The notes under the pieces are model-generated. The model made no database searches, was not told the origin of the DNA, and saw nothing but the letters and a program-made list of their open reading frames with translations. A program made the translations under genes and the position numbers. Shown one piece after another: positions 1,926-37,815 of a stretch of 40,835 nucleotides of DNA; position 1 is the first letter of the stretch; every line of letters starts with the position of its first letter. Source of the DNA: Candidatus Latescibacterota bacterium (lineage in GTDB: Bacteria; Latescibacterota; UBA2968; UBA8231); the NCBI GenBank assembly GCA_041661365.1, contig JBAZUN010000003.1, positions 1 to 40,835 of the forward strand. Direction: 5' to 3'.

Positions 1926-2675
1926 ATGCTGCTGGCGCACCCGACCGGTCACTATCGCTTCCTCACCGGGATCGATCCCTACTCCTGCGGGGTGATCGCC
2001 GATCCGGGGTATCAGATCGTCCGCGCCGCCTTCGCCTGCCTGCTTCCCTGGCGGCAGGGGTTCGAGCGGATCGACGAGCACCTGCGGACCACCGGCCGGG
2101 GCCGGGAGGCGGTGTGCGCCGTGGAGCTGCGTTCGCCGGCCCCCTTCACCATGTCCGGGTTCATCGCCTTCAACCGGACCTACTGCGAGCTGCTGCGCGA
2201 CTGGAACCTGTACGTGGGCGAGTACAACCCCGTGGCGAGGACCAACGTGGCCCCGGTGCACCAACCTCCCTCGGAGGTCGTGCTGCATGCCTTCTCCTAT
2301 ACGGTTCCGGCGGCCGGACCGATGCGACCGACCCTGGTCGTAGCCGGAGCCGGCGAGCTGCGCGAGGGGGTGCTCGAGGAGGAGCGGATCATCCGCCCCG
2401 GCGAGGACAGCGCCGAGGCTCTGCGCGAGAAGGCGACCTACGTGATGCAGGTGATGACCGAGCGGCTATGCGGACTGGGCGGCGACTGGCCGATGGTGAC
2501 CAGCGTCAACGTCTACACCGCTCGCCTGGAGACCTGGGTTGCCGAGGAGATCGTGCTGGCCGGGACCGGGCCGGCACGTCGCGAGGGGCTCTGCTGGCAT
2601 TGCACCCGGCCGCCGGTGCAGCGGATCGACTTTGAGATGGACCTCCGCGGGGTCGCCACCGAGCTGGTGATCTAG
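1926..2675 (+). CDS. conserved hypothetical protein, possibly CnbZ-like deaminase family
   Basis: ORF 1860..2675. The TTG at 1860 abuts AGGAGG with no spacer, so ATG 1926 is preferred; the start is uncertain. Composition is globular. N-terminal HPTGHYRFLTGIDPYSCGVIA resembles my recollection of 2-amino-5-chloromuconate deaminase-like proteins (unverified). Confidence 0.55.
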   Translation: MLLAHPTGHYRFLTGIDPYSCGVIADPGYQIVRAAFACLLPWRQGFERIDEHLRTTGRGREAVCAVELRSPAPFTMSGFIAFNRTYCELLRDWNLYVGEYNPVARTNVAPVHQPPSEVVLHAFSYTVPAAGPMRPTLVVAGAGELREGVLEEERIIRPGEDSAEALREKATYVMQVMTERLCGLGGDWPMVTSVNVYTARLETWVAEEIVLAGTGPARREGLCWHCTRPPVQRIDFEMDLRGVATELVI

Positions 2676-2842
2676 TGTCGCGTCGCAGAAATAAGTTGTG
2701 TCATCGAGCGGGCCGAGGTGCCCGGCCAGCTAGGCGCGCGAACGCCCCGTATCGACAGCAAGATACAGGAAGTGAGCGCAACGACGCTGGCCGGGATGGA
2801 TCGGCCCGCGAATGCCAAGGTATTTCTGCGACGCGACACTAG
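2672..2842 (+). repeat. structured intergenic element, copy 1 (unassigned family)
   Basis: 22-bp perfect closing helix (2672-2693 with 2821-2842). Nested helices 2709-2716/2801-2808 and 2721-2730/2786-2795. Core blocks gctaggcgcgcga, gtgagcgNaacgNcg and ggcccgNgaatg are shared with the elements at 22423, 23853(-) and 35578. Confidence 0.7.
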
Positions 2843-2866: not shown

Positions 2867-3622
2867 TCAGGCCTGTCCGGGCCGCCAGGAGCGGCACCGC
2901 GAGGACCAGTCGGTGCCTTCGGCGCAGAGTGCGGCCGCGTGGTCCGGCCCGGGACTCAGGTCCTCCAGCCGCCACCGGTCGGCGCGGACCGACTCATCGA
3001 ACCCGCGCCGGATCCGCGCCTCCTCGCCCGGGGCGCAGGAAACGGCAAAGCTGGACAGCGGCACGGTCAGTCCCTCGCCCAGGGCCTTGAGCAGGGCCTC
3101 CTTCCGGGTCCAGCAGCGGTAGAATCCCTCCAGTCGCACCTCGCACGCCAGGCCGCCCAGCACCTCGCGCTCCTCGGGGGCGAGGAACCGGCGGGCCAGG
3201 GCCTCGACGTCGATCCCGGGACGGACGTACTCCAGGTCGATCCCCACCGCCCGCCCCCGGCTGATCCCGTAGAGCGCCGTTCCCCGGGAATGGCTCAGGT
3301 TGAACTCCAGCCCGGATCCGGCGCCGCCGGCCAGGGCCGGCTTCCCGCGTGGACCGTAGGTGAATCGGAGCTCCGCCGGCGCCTGACCCACGTGCGCGGC
3401 CAGCAGCAGCCGCAGCGCGGCCCGCGCCACGACGAAACGGGCGCCGTGTCCCGGCAGCCGGAAACGGGTCGCCCGCTCGCGCTCGTCCGGAGACAGCAGG
3501 GGGATCAGACGCTCCGCCTCGTCGGGCTCCACGTCGAGGTGCACCAGCCACACGTGCACCTCCCCCTCGGGCAGAACGCCGTCCGGTCGGCCGCGCGGCC
3601 ATGCTCGTCCATCACCGGTCAT
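2867..3622 (-). CDS. 4'-phosphopantetheinyl transferase, Sfp type
   Basis: Sfp-type motifs: SPDERERATRF, FNLSHS, VGIDLE, WTRKEALLKALGEG. Confidence 0.85.
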   Translation of the reverse strand: MTGDGRAWPRGRPDGVLPEGEVHVWLVHLDVEPDEAERLIPLLSPDERERATRFRLPGHGARFVVARAALRLLLAAHVGQAPAELRFTYGPRGKPALAGGAGSGLEFNLSHSRGTALYGISRGRAVGIDLEYVRPGIDVEALARRFLAPEEREVLGGLACEVRLEGFYRCWTRKEALLKALGEGLTVPLSSFAVSCAPGEEARIRRGFDESVRADRWRLEDLSPGPDHAAALCAEGTDWSSRCRSWRPGQA

Positions 3623-3691
3623 GCCCGGAAAAACGCCGGGCCGGAAGCGGGTGTCAACCCGGGCTCTGGTCGCGGTCCGAGAGCAGGCCGA

Positions 3692-3720
3692 TTGACATTC
3701 AGGGGGGCGTTGATTACGCT
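3692..3720 (+). promoter_or_regulatory. sigma70-like promoter
   Basis: TTGACA (3692-3697) - 17 nt - TACGCT (3715-3720), about 50 nt upstream of the ATG at 3773. Confidence 0.35.
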
Positions 3721-3772
3721 ACACCGTCCCTCGCTCGATTATCCGCATCAAACCCCAAGGAGTCGGCCCGCG

Positions 3773-6091
3773 ATGACACAGGCCATTCCCCAGGACTACA
3801 CCTCCGGCGGCAAGTACCGGGTCATCGGCACCCGCCCGATCCGCCACGACGGGGTGGACAAGGTCACCGGACAGGCGATCTACGGCGCCGACGTGCGGCT
3901 GCCGGGGATGCTCTACGGCAAGGTGCTGCGCAGCCCGCACGCCCACGCCCGCATCCTGAGCATCGACACCCGCCGGGCCGAGCACCTTCCCGGGGTGCGC
4001 GCCGTGGTCACCGCCGACGACCTGGTGGCCACGGTCGACCGCGTGGCCCGCCTCGGCGAGACCAGCGTCAACATCCGCGAGGTGGCCGGCAACTCCCTGG
4101 CCTCGGGCAAGGTCCTCTACAAAGGGCACGCCGTGGCCGCGGTGGCGGCGATCAGTCCCCACGTGGCCGAAGAGGCCCTGGCGCTGATCGAGGTTTCCTA
4201 CGAAGTCTTGCCGGCGGTGGTCGAGGTGCGGGCGGCCATGGCCGCCGACGCACCGTTGTTGGACGAGCGGCGCACCACCCGGGAGCTGGGACAACCCACC
4301 GACCGGCGCAGCAACGTCGCCAGCCACCACCAGCACCGGATGGGTGATCCGGAGCGCGGCTTTGCTCAGGCCGAGGTGATCGTCGAGCGCGAGTTCTCCA
4401 CGGCCACGGTGCACCAGGGGTACATCGAGCCGCACAACACCACGGTCTGGTGGAAGGCCGACGGCAGCATCACCGTCTGGGTCAGCACCCAGGGGCCCTT
4501 CGACATCCGCGGCCAGTTGGCCGACGTCCTCCAGATCCCGGTCTCCCAGATCCGGGTGATCCCCTGCGAGATCGGCGGCGGCTTCGGCGGCAAGTTCCCC
4601 GCGTACATGGAGCCGGCCGCCGCGGTCCTGTCCCACAAGACCGGCCACCCGGTCAAGATGGTGATGACCCGGTCCGAGGTCTTCCAGGCCTCGGGTCCGG
4701 CCCCGGGGTCGTTCATCCGCGTGCGCCTGGGGGCGACGAAGGACGGACGCATCGTGGCCGGGGAGGCGTACCTGGCCTACGAGGCCGGGGCCTTCCCCGG
4801 ATCGGCGGTCGGCGCCGCGGCAGCCTGCATCTTCGCGCCCTACGACCTCGAGAACGTGGTCATCGACGCCTACGACGTGGTGGTCAACAAGCCCAAGTCC
4901 TCGGCCTACCGCGCTCCCGGAGCGCCCAACGCCGCCTTTGCCGCGGAGAGCGTGGTCGACGAGCTGGCCGAGAAGCTGGGGCTCGATCCCCTGGAGCTGC
5001 GGCTGCGGAACGCCGCCCACGAGGGCACGCGCCGGGCCGACGGCGCGGTCTTCCGGGTAATCGGCTGCGTCGAGACGGTCAAGACGGCGATGGCCACCGA
5101 GCACTACCGCGCGCCGCTGACCGGCCCGCATCGGGGCCGCGGGGTGGCCTCGGGGTTCTGGTTCAACGGCGGCGGCCAGTCAGCCGCGGTGGTCACCGTC
5201 AACGCCAACGGCACGGTCAACCTCCAGGAGGGATCGGTCGACATCGGCGGCTCGCGGGCGGCCATGGCGATGATCGTCGCCGAGACCCTCGGACTGCGGG
5301 CCGAGGAGGTGATCCCCAGCATCCCCGACACCAGCTCCATCGGGTACACCGACGGCACCGGGGGAAGCCGGGTCACCTACGCCACCGGTCACGCCTGCTA
5401 TCTGGCCGCCGAGAACCTCAAGCAGGCGATGGGCCGGCGGGCCGCGCTCCAACTCGAGGTACCGGAGACCGACGTCCACTTCGCCGACGGCGCCTTCGTC
5501 TGCACCTCGGATCCCTCGCGCCGGCTCACCTTCCGCGAGGTCGCCGAGGCCCAGGGGAGCACCGGCGGTCCGGTCGCCGGCACCGGGTCGGTGAACGCCG
5601 GGGCCCCGGGGAACGCCTTTGCCACCCATATCGCCGACGTCGAGGTCGACCCGGAGACCGGCAAGGTGACGGTCCTCCGCTACACCGCGGTGCAGGACGT
5701 GGGCAAGGCGATCCACCCGGCCTACGTCGAGGGGCAGATCCAGGGAGGCGCGGCCCAGGGGATCGGCTGGGCCCTGTCCGAGGGGTACGTCTATAACCCC
5801 GACGGCAGCATGGCCAACCCGACCTTCCTCGACTACCGCATGCCCACGGCGCTCGACCTGCCGATGATCGAGCCGGTGATCGTCGAGGTGGCCAATCCCT
5901 CGAGCCCGCACGGCATCCGCGGCGTGGGCGAGGTACCGATCGTGCCGCCGCTCGCCTGCATCGCCAACGCCATCCACCACGCCGTCGGCGTGCGGCTGAC
6001 CGAGTTGCCCATGTCCCCGGACCGCGTCCTCGCGGCACTGCAGACCCGTGCTGCCGCCCCGGGGGAAAAGACCAGAGGAGAAGCCCGGTGA
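3773..6091 (+). CDS. xanthine dehydrogenase / aldehyde oxidase family molybdopterin-binding subunit
   Basis: ATG 3773 lies in frame inside ORF 2939..6091 and is preceded by AAGGAG (3757-3762). N-terminal KYRVIGTRPIRHDGVDKVTGQAIYGADV (a/b hammerhead) and the CEIGGGFGGKF loop are present. 772 aa. Confidence 0.9.
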   Translation: MTQAIPQDYTSGGKYRVIGTRPIRHDGVDKVTGQAIYGADVRLPGMLYGKVLRSPHAHARILSIDTRRAEHLPGVRAVVTADDLVATVDRVARLGETSVNIREVAGNSLASGKVLYKGHAVAAVAAISPHVAEEALALIEVSYEVLPAVVEVRAAMAADAPLLDERRTTRELGQPTDRRSNVASHHQHRMGDPERGFAQAEVIVEREFSTATVHQGYIEPHNTTVWWKADGSITVWVSTQGPFDIRGQLADVLQIPVSQIRVIPCEIGGGFGGKFPAYMEPAAAVLSHKTGHPVKMVMTRSEVFQASGPAPGSFIRVRLGATKDGRIVAGEAYLAYEAGAFPGSAVGAAAACIFAPYDLENVVIDAYDVVVNKPKSSAYRAPGAPNAAFAAESVVDELAEKLGLDPLELRLRNAAHEGTRRADGAVFRVIGCVETVKTAMATEHYRAPLTGPHRGRGVASGFWFNGGGQSAAVVTVNANGTVNLQEGSVDIGGSRAAMAMIVAETLGLRAEEVIPSIPDTSSIGYTDGTGGSRVTYATGHACYLAAENLKQAMGRRAALQLEVPETDVHFADGAFVCTSDPSRRLTFREVAEAQGSTGGPVAGTGSVNAGAPGNAFATHIADVEVDPETGKVTVLRYTAVQDVGKAIHPAYVEGQIQGGAAQGIGWALSEGYVYNPDGSMANPTFLDYRMPTALDLPMIEPVIVEVANPSSPHGIRGVGEVPIVPPLACIANAIHHAVGVRLTELPMSPDRVLAALQTRAAAPGEKTRGEAR

Positions 6092-22269: not shown

Positions 22270-22309
22270 GATATACCTCCAGTGGATATAACGGCCACTA
22301 TTTAATGTT

Positions 22310-22338
22310 GATATACGAATAAGAAATGTATTTGTCAA
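22310..22338 (-). promoter_or_regulatory. sigma70-like promoter in an AT-rich patch
   Basis: Minus strand: TTGACA (22333-22338) - 17 nt - TATATC (22310-22315), about 40 nt upstream of the bEBP ATG. Confidence 0.45.
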
Positions 22339-22422
22339 GTAATAAATGCAGGAGAAACGAACCGCGATCTTTGGTCCGGACTATTGGGCCAGGAAATGTC
22401 GAAGGGGGTCTGGCTAGAGCCT

Positions 22423-22573
22423 GTCCGAGTATTCGCTTCGCAGGCGAGGTCGAGTCATGGTGGTCGAGGGCCAGGCGCGCGAGTGAGGCGCATTGACCAC
22501 GAAATGCGCCGAGTGAGCGGAACGCCGCCCTCGGTCACCAGGGCCGGCCGCAGCCCGAATGGGATACTCGGAC
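22423..22573 (+). repeat. structured intergenic element, copy 2 (unassigned family)
   Basis: Closing helix gtccgagtat/atactcggac. The 41-nt block 22443-22483 is 31/41 identical to 35606-35646. The 3' block ggccgcagcccgaatggg matches 35744-35761 at 17/18. Confidence 0.75.
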
Positions 22574-22605
22574 CGGATCCTACGAGCGAGGGGCAGCGTC
22601 GCCGG

Positions 22606-23822: not shown

Positions 23823-23852
23823 GGCCGACCTCCAGGGCCTTTGGTCAAGGAA

Positions 23853-23950
23853 CTGTCCGACATCCCATTCGGGCCGCGACCGGTCCTTGCGGCTGAGATC
23901 GGCGTTCCGCTTGGCCGCAGGGACAGACCTTTATGCGGGTATATCGGCAG
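23853..23950 (-). repeat. structured intergenic element, copy 3 (reverse orientation, 5'-truncated)
   Basis: The reverse complement reads ctgccgatat..aagcggaacgccg..ccggtcgcggcccgaatggg atgtcggacag. It aligns with the 3' half of copy 2 and keeps a closing helix (one G-U pair and one bulge). Confidence 0.6.
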
Positions 23951-26314: not shown

Positions 26315-27339
26315 TGGCAACGCAACCGAGCCGGAGCACCAGGGACGGAGGCTCCCGGTACCGCTGGGTACAGGTCAGCGGGCAGGCCGCCTTTGCGCCC
26401 AGGGACGGGGCCGGGGCCCTGGTCTTCAACGGCCGGATGTGGCTCCTGGGAGGGTGGAATCCTCCGGACCGCGTGCACTTCCCGTGGAAGTGCAGCAACG
26501 ACGTGTGGAGCTCGGTCGACGGTGCCCGATGGGTGCTGGAGAAGGAGAACACCTTCTGCGAGGGAAGGTTCGAGCCGGAGCGCGACTGGGAGGGACGCCA
26601 CACGGCGGGGTACGCGGTGCTACGCGACCGGATGTGGATCATCGGGGGCGACCCGCTTCAGGGCCACTATCAGAACGACGTCTGGAGTTCGGCCGACGGC
26701 CGCTCCTGGCGACACGAGAACCCGGGCCGCCAGGTCCCCTGGGGACCGCGGGCCCTGCACTACACCTTGGTCTTCCGCGACCGGCTGTGGGTGATGGGCG
26801 GTCAGACCGTGCCGCAGTTCGCCCCTGCGCCGCTGCACCTGCACGACGACGTCTGGTGCTCGACCAACGGCGTGGACTGGAGCCGGATCGAGCCGGCCGG
26901 GTCTCGCTGGTGTCCCCGGGGGATGATCGGCGGCAGCGCGGTCTTCGCCGACCGGATGTGGGTCCTCGGCGGCGGCACCTACGACACCCCGGAAACCCCG
27001 TCGCGCCAGTTCTTCAGCGACGTCTGGAGCTCGGCCGACGGTCGCCACTGGGAGTGCCACTGCGAGCGCGCCCCCTGGCATCCGCGGCAGTACCACGAGG
27101 TCGCGGTCTTCGACGGCCGGCTCTGGGTTCTCGAGGGCTGGAACCAGGCCAACCGGAACGACGTGTGGTATTCCGAGGACGGGGTCGAATGGCACGAGCT
27201 GCCCGACACCCCCTGGGCACCCCGGCACGCGGCCAGCGTCTTCGTCCACGACGACGCCCTGTGGATGGTCGCCGGGAACAACATGGAAAGCGACGTCTGG
27301 CGCCTCGAGCGTCAGCCGATTTCGACTTCAAGCTCCTGA
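26314..27339 (+). CDS. Kelch-type six-bladed beta-propeller protein (cytoplasmic)
   Basis: The ATG overlaps the mazG stop (TGATG) and is preceded by GGAAGGAGG. Six repeats of the type DR(M/L)W..GG....NDVWSS.DG..W. No signal peptide. Confidence 0.8.
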   Translation: MATQPSRSTRDGGSRYRWVQVSGQAAFAPRDGAGALVFNGRMWLLGGWNPPDRVHFPWKCSNDVWSSVDGARWVLEKENTFCEGRFEPERDWEGRHTAGYAVLRDRMWIIGGDPLQGHYQNDVWSSADGRSWRHENPGRQVPWGPRALHYTLVFRDRLWVMGGQTVPQFAPAPLHLHDDVWCSTNGVDWSRIEPAGSRWCPRGMIGGSAVFADRMWVLGGGTYDTPETPSRQFFSDVWSSADGRHWECHCERAPWHPRQYHEVAVFDGRLWVLEGWNQANRNDVWYSEDGVEWHELPDTPWAPRHAASVFVHDDALWMVAGNNMESDVWRLERQPISTSSS

Positions 27340-32269: not shown

Positions 32270-34528
32270 TCAACCGATCTCGGCATCCAGCACCACGGCG
32301 CCGCGGCCCGGGATCTTGACCTGAAGGGTCGATCCGGCCGGGACGACCGGGAAGAGCGGGAAGCGGCTCCTGACCTGCAGCCGGGCGATCGGTCGCTCGA
32401 GGTCGACCCCGGCGAGGACGTACCCGGGCCCATCGTTCCCGAGCAGCAGCCGGATCGCTCCCCCCTCCAGCTCGAAGGCGGTCACGCGCACCCGGGCCGC
32501 GCCGCGGATCACGCGCGGGGTGCCGGTGCAGCGCCGGATCACCTCAGCGCAGGCGTCGAGGAAGGTCCCGGATACCGGGACAAAGACCAGATCCTCGAGG
32601 AAGGACAGGGGCTCGGTCACCTCTTCGCTCGAGGTCGTGCGGGGGAACGAAGGCTCCTCTCCCTCTACGGCGGTTCCGCGGTCCGACATGCGCATCGGAG
32701 TGTCCTCCGAAAGGAGGATCCGATCAGCCGGCACCCCGTAGACCGCACAGGACGCGGCGCCTCGCTCAGGTTCGTCGGCAAACCCGACCACCGGCTCGGG
32801 CAGACCGTCCGCGGGAGGACCGAGCAGGATGACCGGAGCTCGAGCGCCAGCGAGGAGCCGCTCGAGCTCGGCCACGGGCCAGAGGTGGGGATGGAGAACC
32901 AGCAGGGGACCGGTGACCTGGTCGAGATGCCCCGCATCGACCGCGGCAACGACCGGCGCGCCGTGGGCTGCCAGGGCGTGGAGCCAGCGATGCGCGGTCC
33001 AGCCACGGCTTCTGGGGAACTCCTCGAGGTGTCGGTCGAGGGCCACGTCCGACCAGACCACGGTAGCCCCGAGGACCCGCACCGGGTGAACGGCGAAGGC
33101 CAGGTCCCAGGTCTCGCGCAGCCAGCGCCACTCCTCGGGCCGGATGCCGTCGGCCAGGCAGACCACCGGCCCTCGGGTGCACGGCTCGAGAGACAGGACT
33201 GGACGCCGAGGTCTCGACGTGGTGACAGGCGCGACAGGCTCCCCTGCTACATCGGCCGAACCCGTTGGCGAACTCGCTCCTGCTGACGCGGGCGAGCCAG
33301 GCAGGGGCAAGGCTGCTGGCCCGATCGACGGCTGCGGCGCTTCGATGCGATCCGCGCCGTCGGTAGCGGACTTCCACAGGTAGAGGTTCCCGAGGGTCAG
33401 GATCTCGCGCTCGAGCGAGGTCGGCGCGTGGCGCAGGACGTTCCACTGCTCGCGGGTGTCCTTGACCCCGCACAGATTGCGCAGGGGCACCCCCGGCATG
33501 GCGGCCTTGAGCAGCAGCAGCATGGCCGCGAAGTCGTGCAGCACCCGGGCCGAGGACTCCTCGCGCTCGGTCTCCGAGGCGGCCGCGGCAGCCTCGACGA
33601 TGAACCCGTCGACCCCGGCCCGCACCAGGCGCCGGTAGTCCACCCCGTAGCGGTACACGGCCTCGAAGGGATCGCGGGTCCAGCAGGAGTTGAGCACCAC
33701 CTGCCGGCCGATACCGTGCACCGCGTCCGTCACCTTGGCCCAGAACCGGGTGAAGCGCTCGACCCGGAAGCCGCGCCACGCCGAAGACCAATGCGACCAG
33801 ATCCAGTCGGCCCGGCCGCGGATACGGGCCGGATCGCCGTCCGTTGGCGCGGCCAGCGTCGCGGGGAGCCGCAAGCCCGTGGCCGTGAGGAACTGCCCGA
33901 CCAAGTCGTCGGAATAATCCCCGTCGTAGATCGCCAGCCGCGGGTGGCCGTACCCGTCGGCCCCGTGGTACCCGTCGAAGCCGTAGTCCCGCAGCACCCG
34001 CACCAACCGATCGACGAAGAAGTCCTCATAGAGCGAGCCGTCGGCCAGCCGCTTCTGCGGACAGACCGAGGCCAGGCGCTCGCCGGTGCGCCGGACGAAC
34101 AGGATCTCCGGGTGGCGGCCCAGCCATTCGTCGCTGACGAACAGGTCAAAGACCGCCGGGTACACGGCGATCCCGTGCCGGTGCAGGGTCTCGACCAGGC
34201 CGCGCAACTGGCCCCAGGTCCAGGCCTGCCGCTCCCGCTCCTCGTTGCGCGGGTGTCCGGCATAGGAGCAGCAATCGACCGGCAGCAGCCGATCCGGATC
34301 GAGGCGATCGTGGAGGTGAACGAAGTCCGGGTTGAAGAGGAGGAGGGAGACCGCCTCGGGCACGAACCCCGTGGTGTCGAGGAACCGGTCGACCCCGTAG
34401 TCCGGGGCCGCGTGGTCAAAGCCGATCAGCTCGATCCAGAACCAGCGCTCGTGGGTCGCGGCGCCTATCCCGGTCGGGGTACGAACCGCCGTGGCGTGCC
34501 CGCAGTCCGCAGGGGGATGCTTGCTCAT
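32270..34528 (-). CDS. hypothetical two-domain protein, N-terminal glycoside-hydrolase-like TIM-barrel candidate
   Basis: ATG 34528 (MSKHPP) overlaps the stop of the upstream gene (ATGA), in frame inside ORF 32270..35152. Contains GFDGYHGADGYGHP-type segments, a Pro/Ser/Ala linker, and a C-terminal domain of about 270 aa. Confidence 0.7.
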   Translation of the reverse strand: MSKHPPADCGHATAVRTPTGIGAATHERWFWIELIGFDHAAPDYGVDRFLDTTGFVPEAVSLLLFNPDFVHLHDRLDPDRLLPVDCCSYAGHPRNEERERQAWTWGQLRGLVETLHRHGIAVYPAVFDLFVSDEWLGRHPEILFVRRTGERLASVCPQKRLADGSLYEDFFVDRLVRVLRDYGFDGYHGADGYGHPRLAIYDGDYSDDLVGQFLTATGLRLPATLAAPTDGDPARIRGRADWIWSHWSSAWRGFRVERFTRFWAKVTDAVHGIGRQVVLNSCWTRDPFEAVYRYGVDYRRLVRAGVDGFIVEAAAAASETEREESSARVLHDFAAMLLLLKAAMPGVPLRNLCGVKDTREQWNVLRHAPTSLEREILTLGNLYLWKSATDGADRIEAPQPSIGPAALPLPGSPASAGASSPTGSADVAGEPVAPVTTSRPRRPVLSLEPCTRGPVVCLADGIRPEEWRWLRETWDLAFAVHPVRVLGATVVWSDVALDRHLEEFPRSRGWTAHRWLHALAAHGAPVVAAVDAGHLDQVTGPLLVLHPHLWPVAELERLLAGARAPVILLGPPADGLPEPVVGFADEPERGAASCAVYGVPADRILLSEDTPMRMSDRGTAVEGEEPSFPRTTSSEEVTEPLSFLEDLVFVPVSGTFLDACAEVIRRCTGTPRVIRGAARVRVTAFELEGGAIRLLLGNDGPGYVLAGVDLERPIARLQVRSRFPLFPVVPAGSTLQVKIPGRGAVVLDAEIG

Positions 34529-35556
34529 GGCGCGCACACGTCGCCGTGCTGCACGGCCTGGCGGTTCGCCTCGTCGACGATCACCTGGGCCATCAGCCCG
34601 TCGTGGCCGGTGGCCAGGGCCGCCGGCGGTGCGATCCCCTGGGTGACCACGGTCGCGAAGTCGGCCAGCAACTGCGGGATGACCGCCGCGTGCCCCTCGG
34701 TGGGGAACTCCCGGGTCTCGGTCAGACCGGCGCTGACCAGGCGGACTGTATCCCGACGGGCCGCGGTGTCCCGCCGGAAGTCGATCACCCCCGCGGTTCC
34801 GACCAGCACGATGCTGTCGTGCAGGTCGCGCGGCTCGATGTAGGCGGTGTACGCGAAGCTGGCGTTCAGGGTGACCAGCACCCCCAGGTCCAGCCTCGCC
34901 TGGACGGAGATGTGCGGCGGGAAACGGACCTGCTCGCCGAACCAGGCCCCGGTGGCGTGGACCTCCTGCCAGCGGCCGCCGCCGCAGTAGTACCGGGCCA
35001 GGTCGAGATGGTGGATGCCGCAGTCCAGGCAGCCGCTGGCCTCGGTGAACCGGTGCCGGCGCTCGGCCAGCGGGCCGAAGACCTTGTGGCCGTCCCAGAA
35101 CTCGTTCATGTGCACGGCGTGGACCCGGCCGAGATGGCCGGCCTGGACCCATTCCTGGATCTGCCGGTGAACCGGGCTGTACCGGTTCTCGAAGTCCACG
35201 GCGAGGAAGCGATCGGCAGCCGCGGCCGCGGTGACCATCCGCTCTCCGTCCACCGCGTTCATGGCGATCGGCTTCTCGGTGACCACGTGCAGCCCGGTGG
35301 CCAGGGCGGCCAGGACCGGTTCGAGGTGCACCTCGCAGGGGGTGGCCACGTAGATCGCGTCGAGCTCCTCGCGGGACAGCATCTCGGCGTAGTCTTGGTA
35401 CCGCGCCAGCCCGGGCTCAGGCCACTCGAAACGCTCCAGGCTCTCGGCCGAAAGGTCGGCGACCGCGGTCAGGCGGACGTTGGGACATTCCCTGAAGGCC
35501 GGTCCCACGGCCCAGCGCGCGTGGTTCCCGCAGCCGATCAAACCGAATCGCAGCAT
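34525..35556 (-). CDS. Gfo/Idh/MocA family oxidoreductase
   Basis: ATG 35556 preceded by AGGAGGAGGA. Rossmann N-terminus MLRFGLIGCGNHA and an EKP motif (VVTEKPIA). Confidence 0.9.
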   Translation of the reverse strand: MLRFGLIGCGNHARWAVGPAFRECPNVRLTAVADLSAESLERFEWPEPGLARYQDYAEMLSREELDAIYVATPCEVHLEPVLAALATGLHVVTEKPIAMNAVDGERMVTAAAAADRFLAVDFENRYSPVHRQIQEWVQAGHLGRVHAVHMNEFWDGHKVFGPLAERRHRFTEASGCLDCGIHHLDLARYYCGGGRWQEVHATGAWFGEQVRFPPHISVQARLDLGVLVTLNASFAYTAYIEPRDLHDSIVLVGTAGVIDFRRDTAARRDTVRLVSAGLTETREFPTEGHAAVIPQLLADFATVVTQGIAPPAALATGHDGLMAQVIVDEANRQAVQHGDVCAP

Positions 35557-35577
35557 CGTCCTCCTCCTGTTCCCCAA

Positions 35578-35777
35578 GCAGCCCGTTGAAAAAGCCGCTT
35601 TGCCTGGCGAGGCCGAGGGATGGCGGGGCCTGGCTAGGCGCGCGAGCAACAGCGCATCGAGGGAAGATGCGCAGCGCGAGCGGCACAGGGACGTGGCCGG
35701 ATCGAGAGCGATCCGGCACACGACGCCAGGGCCCGTCAGCACCGGCCGCAGCCCTAATGGGCTTTTCAACGGGCTGC
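35578..35777 (+). repeat. structured intergenic element, copy 4 (unassigned family)
   Basis: Closing helix gcagcccgttgaaaaagcc/ggcttttcaacgggctgc. Same core blocks as copy 2. An extra 9-bp hairpin lies at 35696-35717. Confidence 0.75.
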
Positions 35778-35780
35778 TAA

Positions 35781-35891
35781 GTCAGGTCCGCGGCACCCGC
35801 AGCAGGAGCACCGGCACCTGGACGAGGTGGCGCACCTTGTCGACGGTGCTGCCGTAGATCAGGTCGCTGAGGAAACGGTGGCCGTGGGTCG
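35781..35891 (-). pseudogene. orphan duplicate of the usp 3' end (last 36 codons plus stop)
   Basis: 110/111 identical to 37705-37815; the only difference is A35843 versus G37767. Confidence 0.85.
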
Positions 35892-36029: not shown

Positions 36030-37577
36030 ATGGAACGACGCAACTTCGTCAAGAGTCTGGCCGCAGGGGCTGCACTCGTGCCCCTTCTCGCCGAGGTCGC
36101 CCAAGCCTTGTCGGACGGGCTGGAGGCCCTGCGCGCCGATCTGGCGGCAACCCCGGACGACGCGGCCTACTGGGCCAGGGTCCGGGAGGAGTTCACCGCC
36201 CTCGAAGTGGTCTACTTGAACAGCTCGACCATCGGCGCCACGCCGCGGTCGATCATCACGGCGCTGTGCGGGTACCTCGAGCGTCTGGAGAGCTATCCCC
36301 GCAGCTACGTATTCGGGGGCTTCCCCGGAGCCTCGATCGAGACGGTGCGCCAACGGGCCGAGGAGTTCCTCGGCGCGTCGGATGACGAGGTGGCCATCAC
36401 CCACAACACGACCGAGGGGATGAACTACGTCGCCACGGGGCTGAAGCTGCAGGCCGGCGACGAGGTGCTGATGACCGACCAGGAACACCCCGGCGGCACT
36501 GCCGGGTGGCAGTACCGGGCCAAGCGGGACGGCATCCGCATCGCCACCATGTCCCTGCCGACGCCGGTGGAGAGCAAGGAGCAGATCCTGCAGCTCGTCG
36601 AGGACCACCTCACGCCGAACACGCGGGTCTGTTCCTTCTGCCACATCATGACCGAGACCGGGCTGCAGATGCCCCTGGCCGAGATCGCCGCGATCACCCG
36701 TCCCCGGGGCATCTTGCTGGTCTGCGACGGCGCCCACGCCCCGGGCATGCTCCAGGTGGACGTCAAGGCCCTCGGGGTCGACACCTACGCCTCCAGCAGC
36801 CACAAGTGGATGCTGGCGCCCAAGGGCAGCGGCCTGCTCTACATCAGCAAGGAGGTGCAGGACCGGATCCAGCCGGTCGCACTCTCCGGCGGATACGGGG
36901 TGTATTCCGGCGCCTCGGGCACGCCCAATACCCCGCACGTCCTTGCCCACGGGGACACCATGGCCTTTCACAACACCATCGGCCGCGACCGCGTGGAGCG
37001 CCGCGTCCGGCAGCTCCAGGCCTACCTCCGCGCGCGGCTGACGGCGATCGGCGCGACGCCGCTGGTCCCAGACGTTCCTGAGCTGTCCTCCGGCGTCACC
37101 AGCTATGCCTTCTATTCTTTCAGGGGCCGCAACTCGGACAACCTATACCAAGAGCTCAAGAAACGGGGCATCGACGTGAAGGCGGAACCCCGGAACTCCC
37201 TGCGCATCTCGACCCACATCTTCAACAGCGAGGAGGAGATCGACCGGCTGACCGACGAACTGAAGAGCCTTCGGGGGGTCACCTCCGTCGGCGAGACCGG
37301 GAGCGCCCTGCCCAAGGCGGTCGGCCTGCAGCAGAACTACCCGAACCCGTTCAACGCTTCCACGCAGATCCGCTACGAGCTGCCGGCCGACGGCAACGTC
37401 CGCCTGGAGATCCTCGATGCCTTGGGGCAGATCGTCGACGTCCCGTTCCGCGGCTGGCAGACCGCCGGCCGGCACGAGCTGCTGTGGAGTGCCGGCCTCT
37501 TCGCCACCGGAACATACCTGTGTCGACTGGTCGCCGACGAGGAGACGCAGACGCGCAAGATGGAGCTGGTCCGGTAA
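36030..37577 (+). CDS. class V aminotransferase-fold PLP enzyme with Tat signal and T9SS C-terminal sorting domain
   Basis: ATG 36030 preceded by AAGGAG. Twin-arginine motif ERRNFVKSLAAGAA. PLP-lysine motif SSHKW. C-terminal LQQNYPNPFNASTQIRYELP...GTYLCRL is of T9SS/FlgD-Ig-like sorting type. Confidence 0.85.
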   Translation: MERRNFVKSLAAGAALVPLLAEVAQALSDGLEALRADLAATPDDAAYWARVREEFTALEVVYLNSSTIGATPRSIITALCGYLERLESYPRSYVFGGFPGASIETVRQRAEEFLGASDDEVAITHNTTEGMNYVATGLKLQAGDEVLMTDQEHPGGTAGWQYRAKRDGIRIATMSLPTPVESKEQILQLVEDHLTPNTRVCSFCHIMTETGLQMPLAEIAAITRPRGILLVCDGAHAPGMLQVDVKALGVDTYASSSHKWMLAPKGSGLLYISKEVQDRIQPVALSGGYGVYSGASGTPNTPHVLAHGDTMAFHNTIGRDRVERRVRQLQAYLRARLTAIGATPLVPDVPELSSGVTSYAFYSFRGRNSDNLYQELKKRGIDVKAEPRNSLRISTHIFNSEEEIDRLTDELKSLRGVTSVGETGSALPKAVGLQQNYPNPFNASTQIRYELPADGNVRLEILDALGQIVDVPFRGWQTAGRHELLWSAGLFATGTYLCRLVADEETQTRKMELVR

Positions 37578-37704: not shown

Positions 37705-37815
37705 GTCAGGTCCGCGGCACCCGCAGCAGGAGCACCGGCACCTGGACGAGGTGGCGCACCTTGTCGGCGGTGCTGCCGTAGATCAGGTCGCTGAGGAAAC
37801 GGTGGCCGTGGGTCG
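37705..37815. repeat. direct repeat partner (genuine usp 3' end)
   Basis: Matches 35781-35891 at 110/111. Confidence 0.85.

Follow-up and report, generated by a model that had tools for sequence, protein, structure and literature searches.

A stretch of 40,835 nucleotides from a “Candidatus Latescibacterota” bacterium (contig JBAZUN010000003.1), analysed here as a whole and called the window, contains several copies of a structured element. The fourth of these, copy 4, lies between a fragment of a usp gene and a gene of the Gfo/Idh/MocA family. From the sequence alone, the copies had been taken either for an element associated with gene 3' ends or terminators or for a mobile repeat that targets such sites. 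The question raised by the locus is whether copy 4 is a terminator, an RNA gene, or a piece of mobile DNA.

Structure of copy 4

Copy 4 comprises the following features.

35578-35777, + strand: copy 4, a diverged, 200-nt palindromic copy of a probable MITE that contains about 35 nt of inserted sequence; the alignment includes 16 further family members
35578-35596, + strand: left terminal inverted repeat, GCAGCCCGTTGAAAAAGCC, which forms the 5' side of the closing helix; a diverged form of the GTGCC... end of the family
35759-35777, + strand: right terminal inverted repeat, which forms the 3' side of the closing helix; a reverse-complement match with 2 mismatches
35611-35615 with 35743-35747, + strand: P2, GGCCG paired with CGGCC
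35636-35645, + strand: core 5' motif, AGGCGCGCGA, with no difference between copies 1, 2, and 4
35652-35672, + strand: apical hairpin, GCGCATC (35652-35658) paired with GATGCGC (35666-35672); the pairing is kept although the sequence of each copy differs
35678-35686, + strand: core 3' motif, GAGCGGCAC, for which the family has the consensus GAGCGSAAC; GCG is base-paired to the 5' motif, and GA lies opposite the GA there
35687-35722, + strand: copy-specific insert of about 35 nt at the SAA bulge, holding a perfect 9-bp hairpin

The closing helix joins 35578-35596 with 35759/60-35777 (18 to 19 bp). A sequence search with the reverse complement of the left arm returned a single site, 35759-35777, where 0 were expected by chance. 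The minimum free energy of the + strand is -123.7 kcal/mol, compared with -87.4 ± 3.9 for shuffled sequences (z = -9.27; 0 of 200 shuffles were as good). This fold contains the closing helix, P2, the apical hairpin, and the extra hairpin, and the original prediction had thus placed all four correctly. The - strand folds less well (-113.4 kcal/mol, z = -6.0). Copy 4 has no open reading frame (ORF) of its own; the ORFs listed over it are neighbouring frames that read through.

The extra hairpin, GCCGGATCG-AGAG-CGATCCGGC (35696-35717), is a perfect 9-bp stem located at a 3-nt bulge after the GAGCG(S)(M)AC motif. It had been described as inserted relative to copy 2; the alignment agrees and indicates a true insertion relative to copy 1 as well. 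At this junction, two unrelated copies in another genome (L068 and L071) also have inserted sequence, about 34 nt that differ from the insert of copy 4. The insertion of a modular helix had been read as typical of RNA families, which is true in general but not diagnostic for copy 4, because the arms of a palindromic transposon co-vary regardless.

Other copies in the window

2675-2839, + strand: copy 1, 165 nt, closed by a perfect helix of 22 bp and flanked left and right by C-TA-G; it lies at the stop codon of the upstream RidA-like gene
22417-22579, + strand: copy 2, 163 nt, with CTA on each flank
about 23850-23915, - strand: “copy 3,” a solo right half that keeps the 3' core motif AGCGGAAC and the terminus

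A trimmed covariance model of 131 positions was scored at every window position. It finds three full copies only, all on the + strand, namely, copy 1 (2692-2823, 95.1 bits), copy 2 (22433-22562, 95.6 bits), and copy 4 (35596-35761, 55.9 bits, E = 4.5e-13), the last with the lowest score of the three; the next best score in the window is 14 bits. The numbered copies of the original prediction are therefore full elements in the case of copies 1, 2, and 4, but copy 3 is a right half, which was missed by the covariance model and does not fold by itself (z = -0.66). Copies 1 and 2 fold into long rods (z = -11.5 and -6.5, respectively). The window copies are 44 to 61% identical among themselves, and copy 1 is nearer to copies of other phyla (62 to 65%) than to its genome-mates. 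Copies 1, 2, and 4 have a common layout of AGGCGCGCGA, exactly 32 nt, and then GAGCG(S)(M)AC.

Some further features were observed beside these copies. Two element arms in inverted orientation enclose a ParA/Soj gene; they are the right side of copy 2 (22516-22565) and the - strand fragment, copy 3 (23850-23915), which lie 1,296 nt apart and are 82% complementary. This arrangement may be what a deletion or a composite structure has left behind. An AT-rich island (22300-22360; 57% GC over 400 nt amid about 69% GC) adjoins copy 2 directly upstream of the sigma-54 activator gene, and a promoter scan found no sigma-70 consensus promoter in it. At 26497-27192, an ORF contains five in-frame repeats of 141 to 177 nt that are 66 to 81% identical; they are probably Kelch/beta-propeller blades, since a Kelch-domain gene occurs nearby in a syntenic relative (L206). 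Downstream of copy 1, an ORF on the - strand (2867-3622) overlaps an ORF on the + strand (2939-6091). Because two relatives (L208 and L209) show a convergent gene after the RidA-like gene, the - strand ORF is probably the real neighbour of copy 1. The + strand ORF, which is xanthine-dehydrogenase-like, probably starts later than 2939, because its Pfam matches begin at residue 310.

A family in several phyla

Genomes, one per species, were searched with a pattern built on the shared core motifs. The hits mixed true copies with chance matches in coding DNA, and the covariance model confirms 25 strong matches in genome loci. Copies of the family occur in MAGs under five phylum labels, Planctomycetota (several), Acidobacteriota, Nitrospirae, Latescibacterota, and delta-proteobacteria, labels for which MAG binning is a caveat. 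Judging by the names of its closest protein homologues, the window itself probably belongs to “Candidatus Latescibacterota”; exact-match look-ups with three window proteins returned no entry. A looser pattern run over metagenome contigs gave 120 stretches, and in the loci obtained from this search the covariance model has 56 and 20 matches at its cut-offs; these dozens of copies derive from many soil and sediment samples. Viral contigs yielded two weak, partial core matches only, which we judged to be due to chance, and BLAST of an element and of a putative IS end against a plasmid collection gave no useful match.

Members of the family are mostly 161 to 165 nt long without inserts and about 200 nt long with the extra hairpin (range, 161 to 208 nt, with L086 at 208 nt). 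The length variation is symmetric or located at the bulge, for example in L086, L068, L071, and copy 4. A canonical member starts with GTGCC... (or GTACC or GAGCC), has the inverted complement at its other end, contains no ORF, and is imperfectly palindromic throughout; more than 30 copies show conservation of the ends GTGCC.../...GGCAC. The flanking genes are unrelated, and neither ORF clustering nor Pfam revealed a conserved neighbouring gene. In two distantly related genomes, the equivalent spacer just upstream of a trmD-like gene is occupied by different element subfamilies (L067, 3748-3910; L115, 3838-4114; the second subfamily is described below), each in sense orientation and at a position that normally belongs to an operon.

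Rfam 15 gave 0 matches at the gathering score in the window and 14 loci, and a search of two elements in E-value mode gave matches at chance level only. Literature searches with motif strings and with the terms MITE, IS5, and Planctomycetes found no description of the family, which is apparently undescribed in Rfam and the searchable literature.

Mobility of the family

The family combines inverted terminal repeats, a target duplication, small and noncoding copies, their dispersal, and presence in some genomes with absence from their relatives, all of which are properties of a MITE. Perfect 3-nt repeats (TAA, TTA, TCA, or CTA) flank 14 of the 32 distinct full copies, and 6 more copies have TA on both sides within C-TA-G; a control with a 3-nt shift has none among 32. 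C precedes the flanking repeat in 22 of 32 copies, and G follows it in 16. One MAG of Planctomycetia, CAYMRB01, carries at least 8 copies that are 98 to 99% identical and have unrelated flanks.

The site of copy 1 is empty in three relatives (L207, L208, and L209). The closest, L207, is 93.9% identical up to window position 2673 and 90.2% identical from 2872 on, with 36 nt where the window has 198 nt; the spacers of L208 and L209 are similarly short. Copy 1 is inserted in a stop codon, ATC-TA-[G...C]-TA-G, such that TA and the first G of the element re-create a TAG stop. Likewise, no copy is present in the spacers of copies 2 and 3 in the syntenic relative L206 (sigma-70, ParA, and sigma-54 activator genes). 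In this relative, the spacer between the ParA and sigma-54 activator genes (L206, 3810-4180) has, in the place of the MITE, two tandem units of about 185 nt that are unrelated to it.

Copy 4 belongs to this family of inverted-repeat elements, which are mobile, duplicate their target, and prefer a particular target site. We conclude that copy 4 is probably an old, immobile copy of a MITE, that is, of a non-autonomous DNA transposon (probability, about 0.85); past mobility of copy 4 itself is suggested by its homology to the family. Of the two readings originally offered, a mobile repeat that targets such sites is the one that gains strong support from the terminal inverted repeats, the T(N)A duplications, the near-identical copies, the empty site of copy 1, and the break of synteny at copy 4.

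Copy 4 at a rearrangement junction

35575-35577, + strand: left flank of copy 4, CAA; it does not match the right flank and is not an intact target duplication
35778-35780, + strand: right flank of copy 4, TAA, the typical target of the family (C-TAA-G), 1 nt from the stop codon of the usp fragment
35781-35891: copy of the usp 3' end, 111 nt, abutting the right flank of copy 4, with a Usp Pfam match; its twin at 37705-37815 is 99% identical

The ends of copy 4 (GCAGCCC.../...GGGCTGC) have diverged from the GTGCC of the family. The closest relative of the Gfo/Idh/MocA locus (L203) is 92.7% identical over 2,225 nt, is colinear with 33351-35575 only, and loses homology 2 nt before copy 4. Its upstream genes are a creatininase and a fucosidase in place of usp, and a more distant relative has the same creatininase-Gfo order. 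The intact usp gene has no element after its stop codon. As judged from these comparisons, copy 4 is not a simple insertion but marks the junction of a rearrangement, with a left and a right flank of different origin. In the simplest reading, an old copy that had inserted just after the usp stop codon would later have been caught in a rearrangement, for which recombination between copies and aberrant transposition are candidate mechanisms.

The usp 3' end itself forms a direct repeat of 111 nt (35781-35891 and 37705-37815) that brackets a segment of 1,813 nt, and the left repeat begins 1 nt before the stop codon. The bracketed segment contains a class-V aminotransferase gene (36030-37577) with a Tat-like signal and a weak Por_Secre_tail match.

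A second subfamily and the putative transposase

A T(N)A duplication of 2 to 3 nt is typical of groups of the IS5 family. Within this family, the IS1031 group has a 3-nt target (PMC2516522). We infer that the transposase belongs to the IS5 family: a DDE transposase of this kind, supplied in trans, would bind the terminal inverted repeats and insert the element at C-T(N)A-G, duplicating TA or T(N)A.

Among the metagenome matches, a second subfamily is common. It consists of MITEs of about 275 nt with the same G•A-rich core; one such copy (L127, 2000-2273) has CTAA on each flank. The ends of subfamily 2, GGAAGCGCTGAACAAATCC, match the end of Escherichia coli IS5, GGAAGGTGCGAACAAGTCC, at 14 of 20 positions. 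The ends of subfamily 1 (GTGCC...) have no match to any named IS. An element of about 200 nt (L123, 611-812) has the IS5-like ends of subfamily 2 and lacks the G•A-rich core, which makes the core an optional part of the subfamily-2 scaffold.

In about 1.2 Mb of flanking DNA, we detected neither an autonomous IS with matching ends nor a gene for a transposase. Across all loci, there were no inverted-repeat pairs 300 to 4,000 nt apart with T(N)A flanks, and a regular expression for IS5-like ends returned MITE-sized pairs or solitary ends only. Clustering of the flanking ORFs together with Pfam gave ABC transporters, two-component systems, and similar genes, with no transposase among them. In CAYMRB01, contigs begin within another repeat (L014, 9-48; L028, 11-50; L034, 23-41). 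The end of this repeat, GTGCCGTCGGTCAGAAGTTCTTGTGCAT (GTGCCGTCGGTCAGAAGTTCTTGTGCATTC...), resembles the MITE end GTGCCGTGTTTCGCAAATATCTGTGCAT, and in L014 and L034 the repeat abuts a MITE copy at a common TTA. This contig-start repeat is a candidate for the autonomous partner IS, cut by assembly.

Proximity to stop codons

The copies had been reported to lie near stop codons in either orientation, and the larger family agrees. According to a crude gene call for 65 copies, they face gene ends 62 times and gene starts 33 times, and the distance to the stop codon is 5 nt or less in 13 of the 62. Relative to the flanking genes, 52 orientations are sense and 43 antisense, which is no bias; nor did orientation follow local GC skew, which served as a proxy for the replication strand. 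The proximity to stop codons results from the C-T(N)A-G target, since in DNA of about 70% GC the codons TAA, TAG, and TGA are among the few such sites, which are rare except at stop codons and in short spacers. Distances to stop codons of up to about 150 nt, for copies of both orientations, are thus explained without a function at gene 3' ends. A terminator scan found no U-tract terminator in or beside the three window copies, and a promoter scan found no sigma-70 promoter at them. Two copies upstream of trmD lie between genes that are apparently co-transcribed.

Possible selection on the fold and on the G•A-rich core

Pairing in an unmodified MAFFT alignment (17 members) amounts to 80.8% of cells, compared with 34 to 40% (about 37%) when the partners are slid; double changes occur at 54 of 67 pairs, and 0 of 500 shuffles reach the observed values. 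The metagenome set, in a model-fitted alignment, gives 79.5% versus 27 to 40%. Covariation alone is no proof of RNA, because the two arms of a palindromic transposon co-evolve regardless. The strands differ in stability: the sense strand is the more stable one in 23 of 24 distinct elements with RNA parameters (by a mean of 13.5 kcal/mol) and in 24 of 24 with DNA parameters. Its mismatches are purine-rich (G•A, 155 versus C•U, 51; G•U, 144 versus A•C, 97). The counts of strand asymmetry depend in part on model-fitted alignments.

The core consists of AGGCGCGCGA, a spacer of 31 to 33 nt, and GAGCGSAAC, which form two tandem G•A loops around a 2-bp helix, together with a GCGC/GCG helix whose 3-nt bulge tolerates inserted hairpins. 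The same core is found within two MITE scaffolds with different ends (subfamilies 1 and 2). Its “invariance” is partly circular, as the public scans required the core motifs; in copies that were recovered without the pattern, changes in the core are compensatory or coordinated. Thus, L139 and L106 have the core helix GCAG/CTGC in place of GCGC/GCGC, and both core arms of L105 are 2 nt shorter.

The strand asymmetry, the purine-rich mismatches, and the conserved G•A core, with its recurrence in the otherwise unrelated scaffold of subfamily 2, suggest selection on a single-stranded fold of the sense strand. The rod-like fold arises because the halves of the element are inverted repeats, and pairing beyond that seems to be actively maintained. 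A single-stranded form of the sense strand would probably matter to the element, most likely as a hairpin RNA produced by read-through of a copy and less likely as snap-back DNA. The G•A-rich core may even be a functional single-stranded module, such as a protein-binding or processing RNA, carried as cargo by IS5-type MITEs across phyla. The occurrence of the core in two scaffolds, the core-less relative of the second scaffold, the compensatory helix changes, and the stability bias of the sense strand fit this reading, which we regard as tentative and rather doubtful.

Weighing of alternative explanations

The same observations can be set against other readings of copy 4. Several observations, namely, the very strong covariation, the conserved purine-rich core with its tandem G•A loops, the better folding of the sense strand in 23 of 24 elements, the hairpins of variable length at one junction (copy 4, L068, and L071), and the presence of one core in two different scaffolds, would also be expected if the copies were non-mobile genes for structured noncoding RNAs (paralogous small RNAs or protein-binding RNAs) with the extra hairpin as a variable domain. 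Such genes are an improbable explanation for sequences that have target-site duplications, near-identical dispersed copies, and an empty site in relatives at 94% identity. Moreover, there is no match in Rfam 15, promoter and terminator signals are absent at the three window copies, the orientation is unbiased relative to genes or local GC skew, a conserved neighbour gene is lacking, and the co-variation of the arms is expected of any palindromic transposon. Hairpins that arose in place at gene ends as terminators or 3'-UTR stabilizers would account for the great stability of the copies, for the roughly twofold excess of gene ends over gene starts, and for the many copies that touch a stop codon. 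This part of the original prediction lacks support and is highly improbable: the stems of the window copies are not followed by a T/U tract, sense orientation is about as frequent as antisense (52 versus 43), some copies are inside apparent operons, such as the two upstream of trmD, the orthologous spacers of close relatives lack the element, and the T(N)A target already accounts for the proximity to stop codons.

A different mode of mobility, in which an HUH/Y1 transposase (REP/REPIN-RAYT or IS200/IS605 “PATE” type) transfers the hairpin as single-stranded DNA, can draw on the long palindrome and on the strand-asymmetric fold, which suits a single-strand substrate. However, HUH-type elements make neither target duplications nor terminal inverted repeats of this kind, whereas the duplications of the present family change in step on both sides (TAA/TAA, TTA/TTA, and TCA/TCA). 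In addition, there is no bias relative to local GC skew and no RAYT or TnpA gene nearby, and 160 nt is far above the length of a REP. We find this mode scarcely credible. The preferred reading is still that of a MITE, putatively of the IS5 type, of which copy 4 is probably an old representative.

Implications

One window contains three or four stable hairpins beside stop codons because, in GC-rich DNA, stop codons coincide with the C-T(N)A-G target of a mobile element. The case calls for caution in the discovery of RNA motifs, as a palindromic transposon yields textbook covariation, modular helices, and extreme fold z-scores without being an RNA gene. The family is widespread in uncultured bacteria of soil, sediment, and groundwater, marks rearrangement junctions such as that between usp and Gfo, and may merit description. 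If the core is indeed a selected RNA or DNA structure, it would be one of the few cases in bacteria in which MITEs spread a structured module.

Comparison with known systems

Several known structured elements were considered as candidates and rejected. An integron attC site needs RYYYAAC at its 5' side and GTTRRRY at its 3' side; copy 4 has a GTTGAAA-like box at the 5' side and TTCAAC at the 3' side, which is the wrong order on either strand, and the ends of the other copies are unrelated. A Pfam scan of ten window ORFs, the neighbours of every copy among them, revealed no cassette array or integrase. A retron noncoding RNA is rejected because there is no reverse transcriptase and there are several copies, and a k-turn is rejected because the bulge is 3 bp from the G•A pairs.

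REPs are 20 to 40 nt long, have a GTAG or CGTC head, do not duplicate their target, and are accompanied by a RAYT gene (PMC3733652). Like REPs and REPINs, the present elements are numerous extragenic palindromes near gene ends, but they are about 160 nt long, have duplications, and lack a recurrent neighbour gene. Bacterial MITEs in general are small palindromes that are transcribed into hairpins, and the transcripts of ERIC/IRU, RUP, BOX/SPRITE, and bcr1 are suspected to affect mRNA stability or termination (PMC10969869). The family resembles these four in consisting of small, dispersed, imperfect palindromes with long-hairpin transcripts, whereas the hosts, ends, and targets differ. To our knowledge, none of the four has been reported to have one structured core common to two transposon scaffolds.

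The Correia elements (NEMIS) of Neisseria are noncoding palindromic MITEs of about 100 to 160 bp that have a TA-containing target duplication, often lie near genes, and are co-transcribed with them into stable hairpin RNA. The elements described here are likewise noncoding palindromic MITEs with terminal inverted repeats and a TA-containing target duplication. There is no sequence relation between the two: Correia elements belong to one genus and are AT-richer, whereas the present family has T(N)A or TA within C-T(N)A-G, occurs in MAGs of several phyla, and possesses a conserved G•A-rich core. With the IS5 family (IS5, IS1031, and IS427 groups), the elements share short duplications of the T(N)A type and, in subfamily 2, 14 of 20 end positions with IS5, although they are without a transposase gene. 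The eukaryotic relatives of IS5, PIF/Harbinger and the Tourist MITEs, have a TWA duplication.
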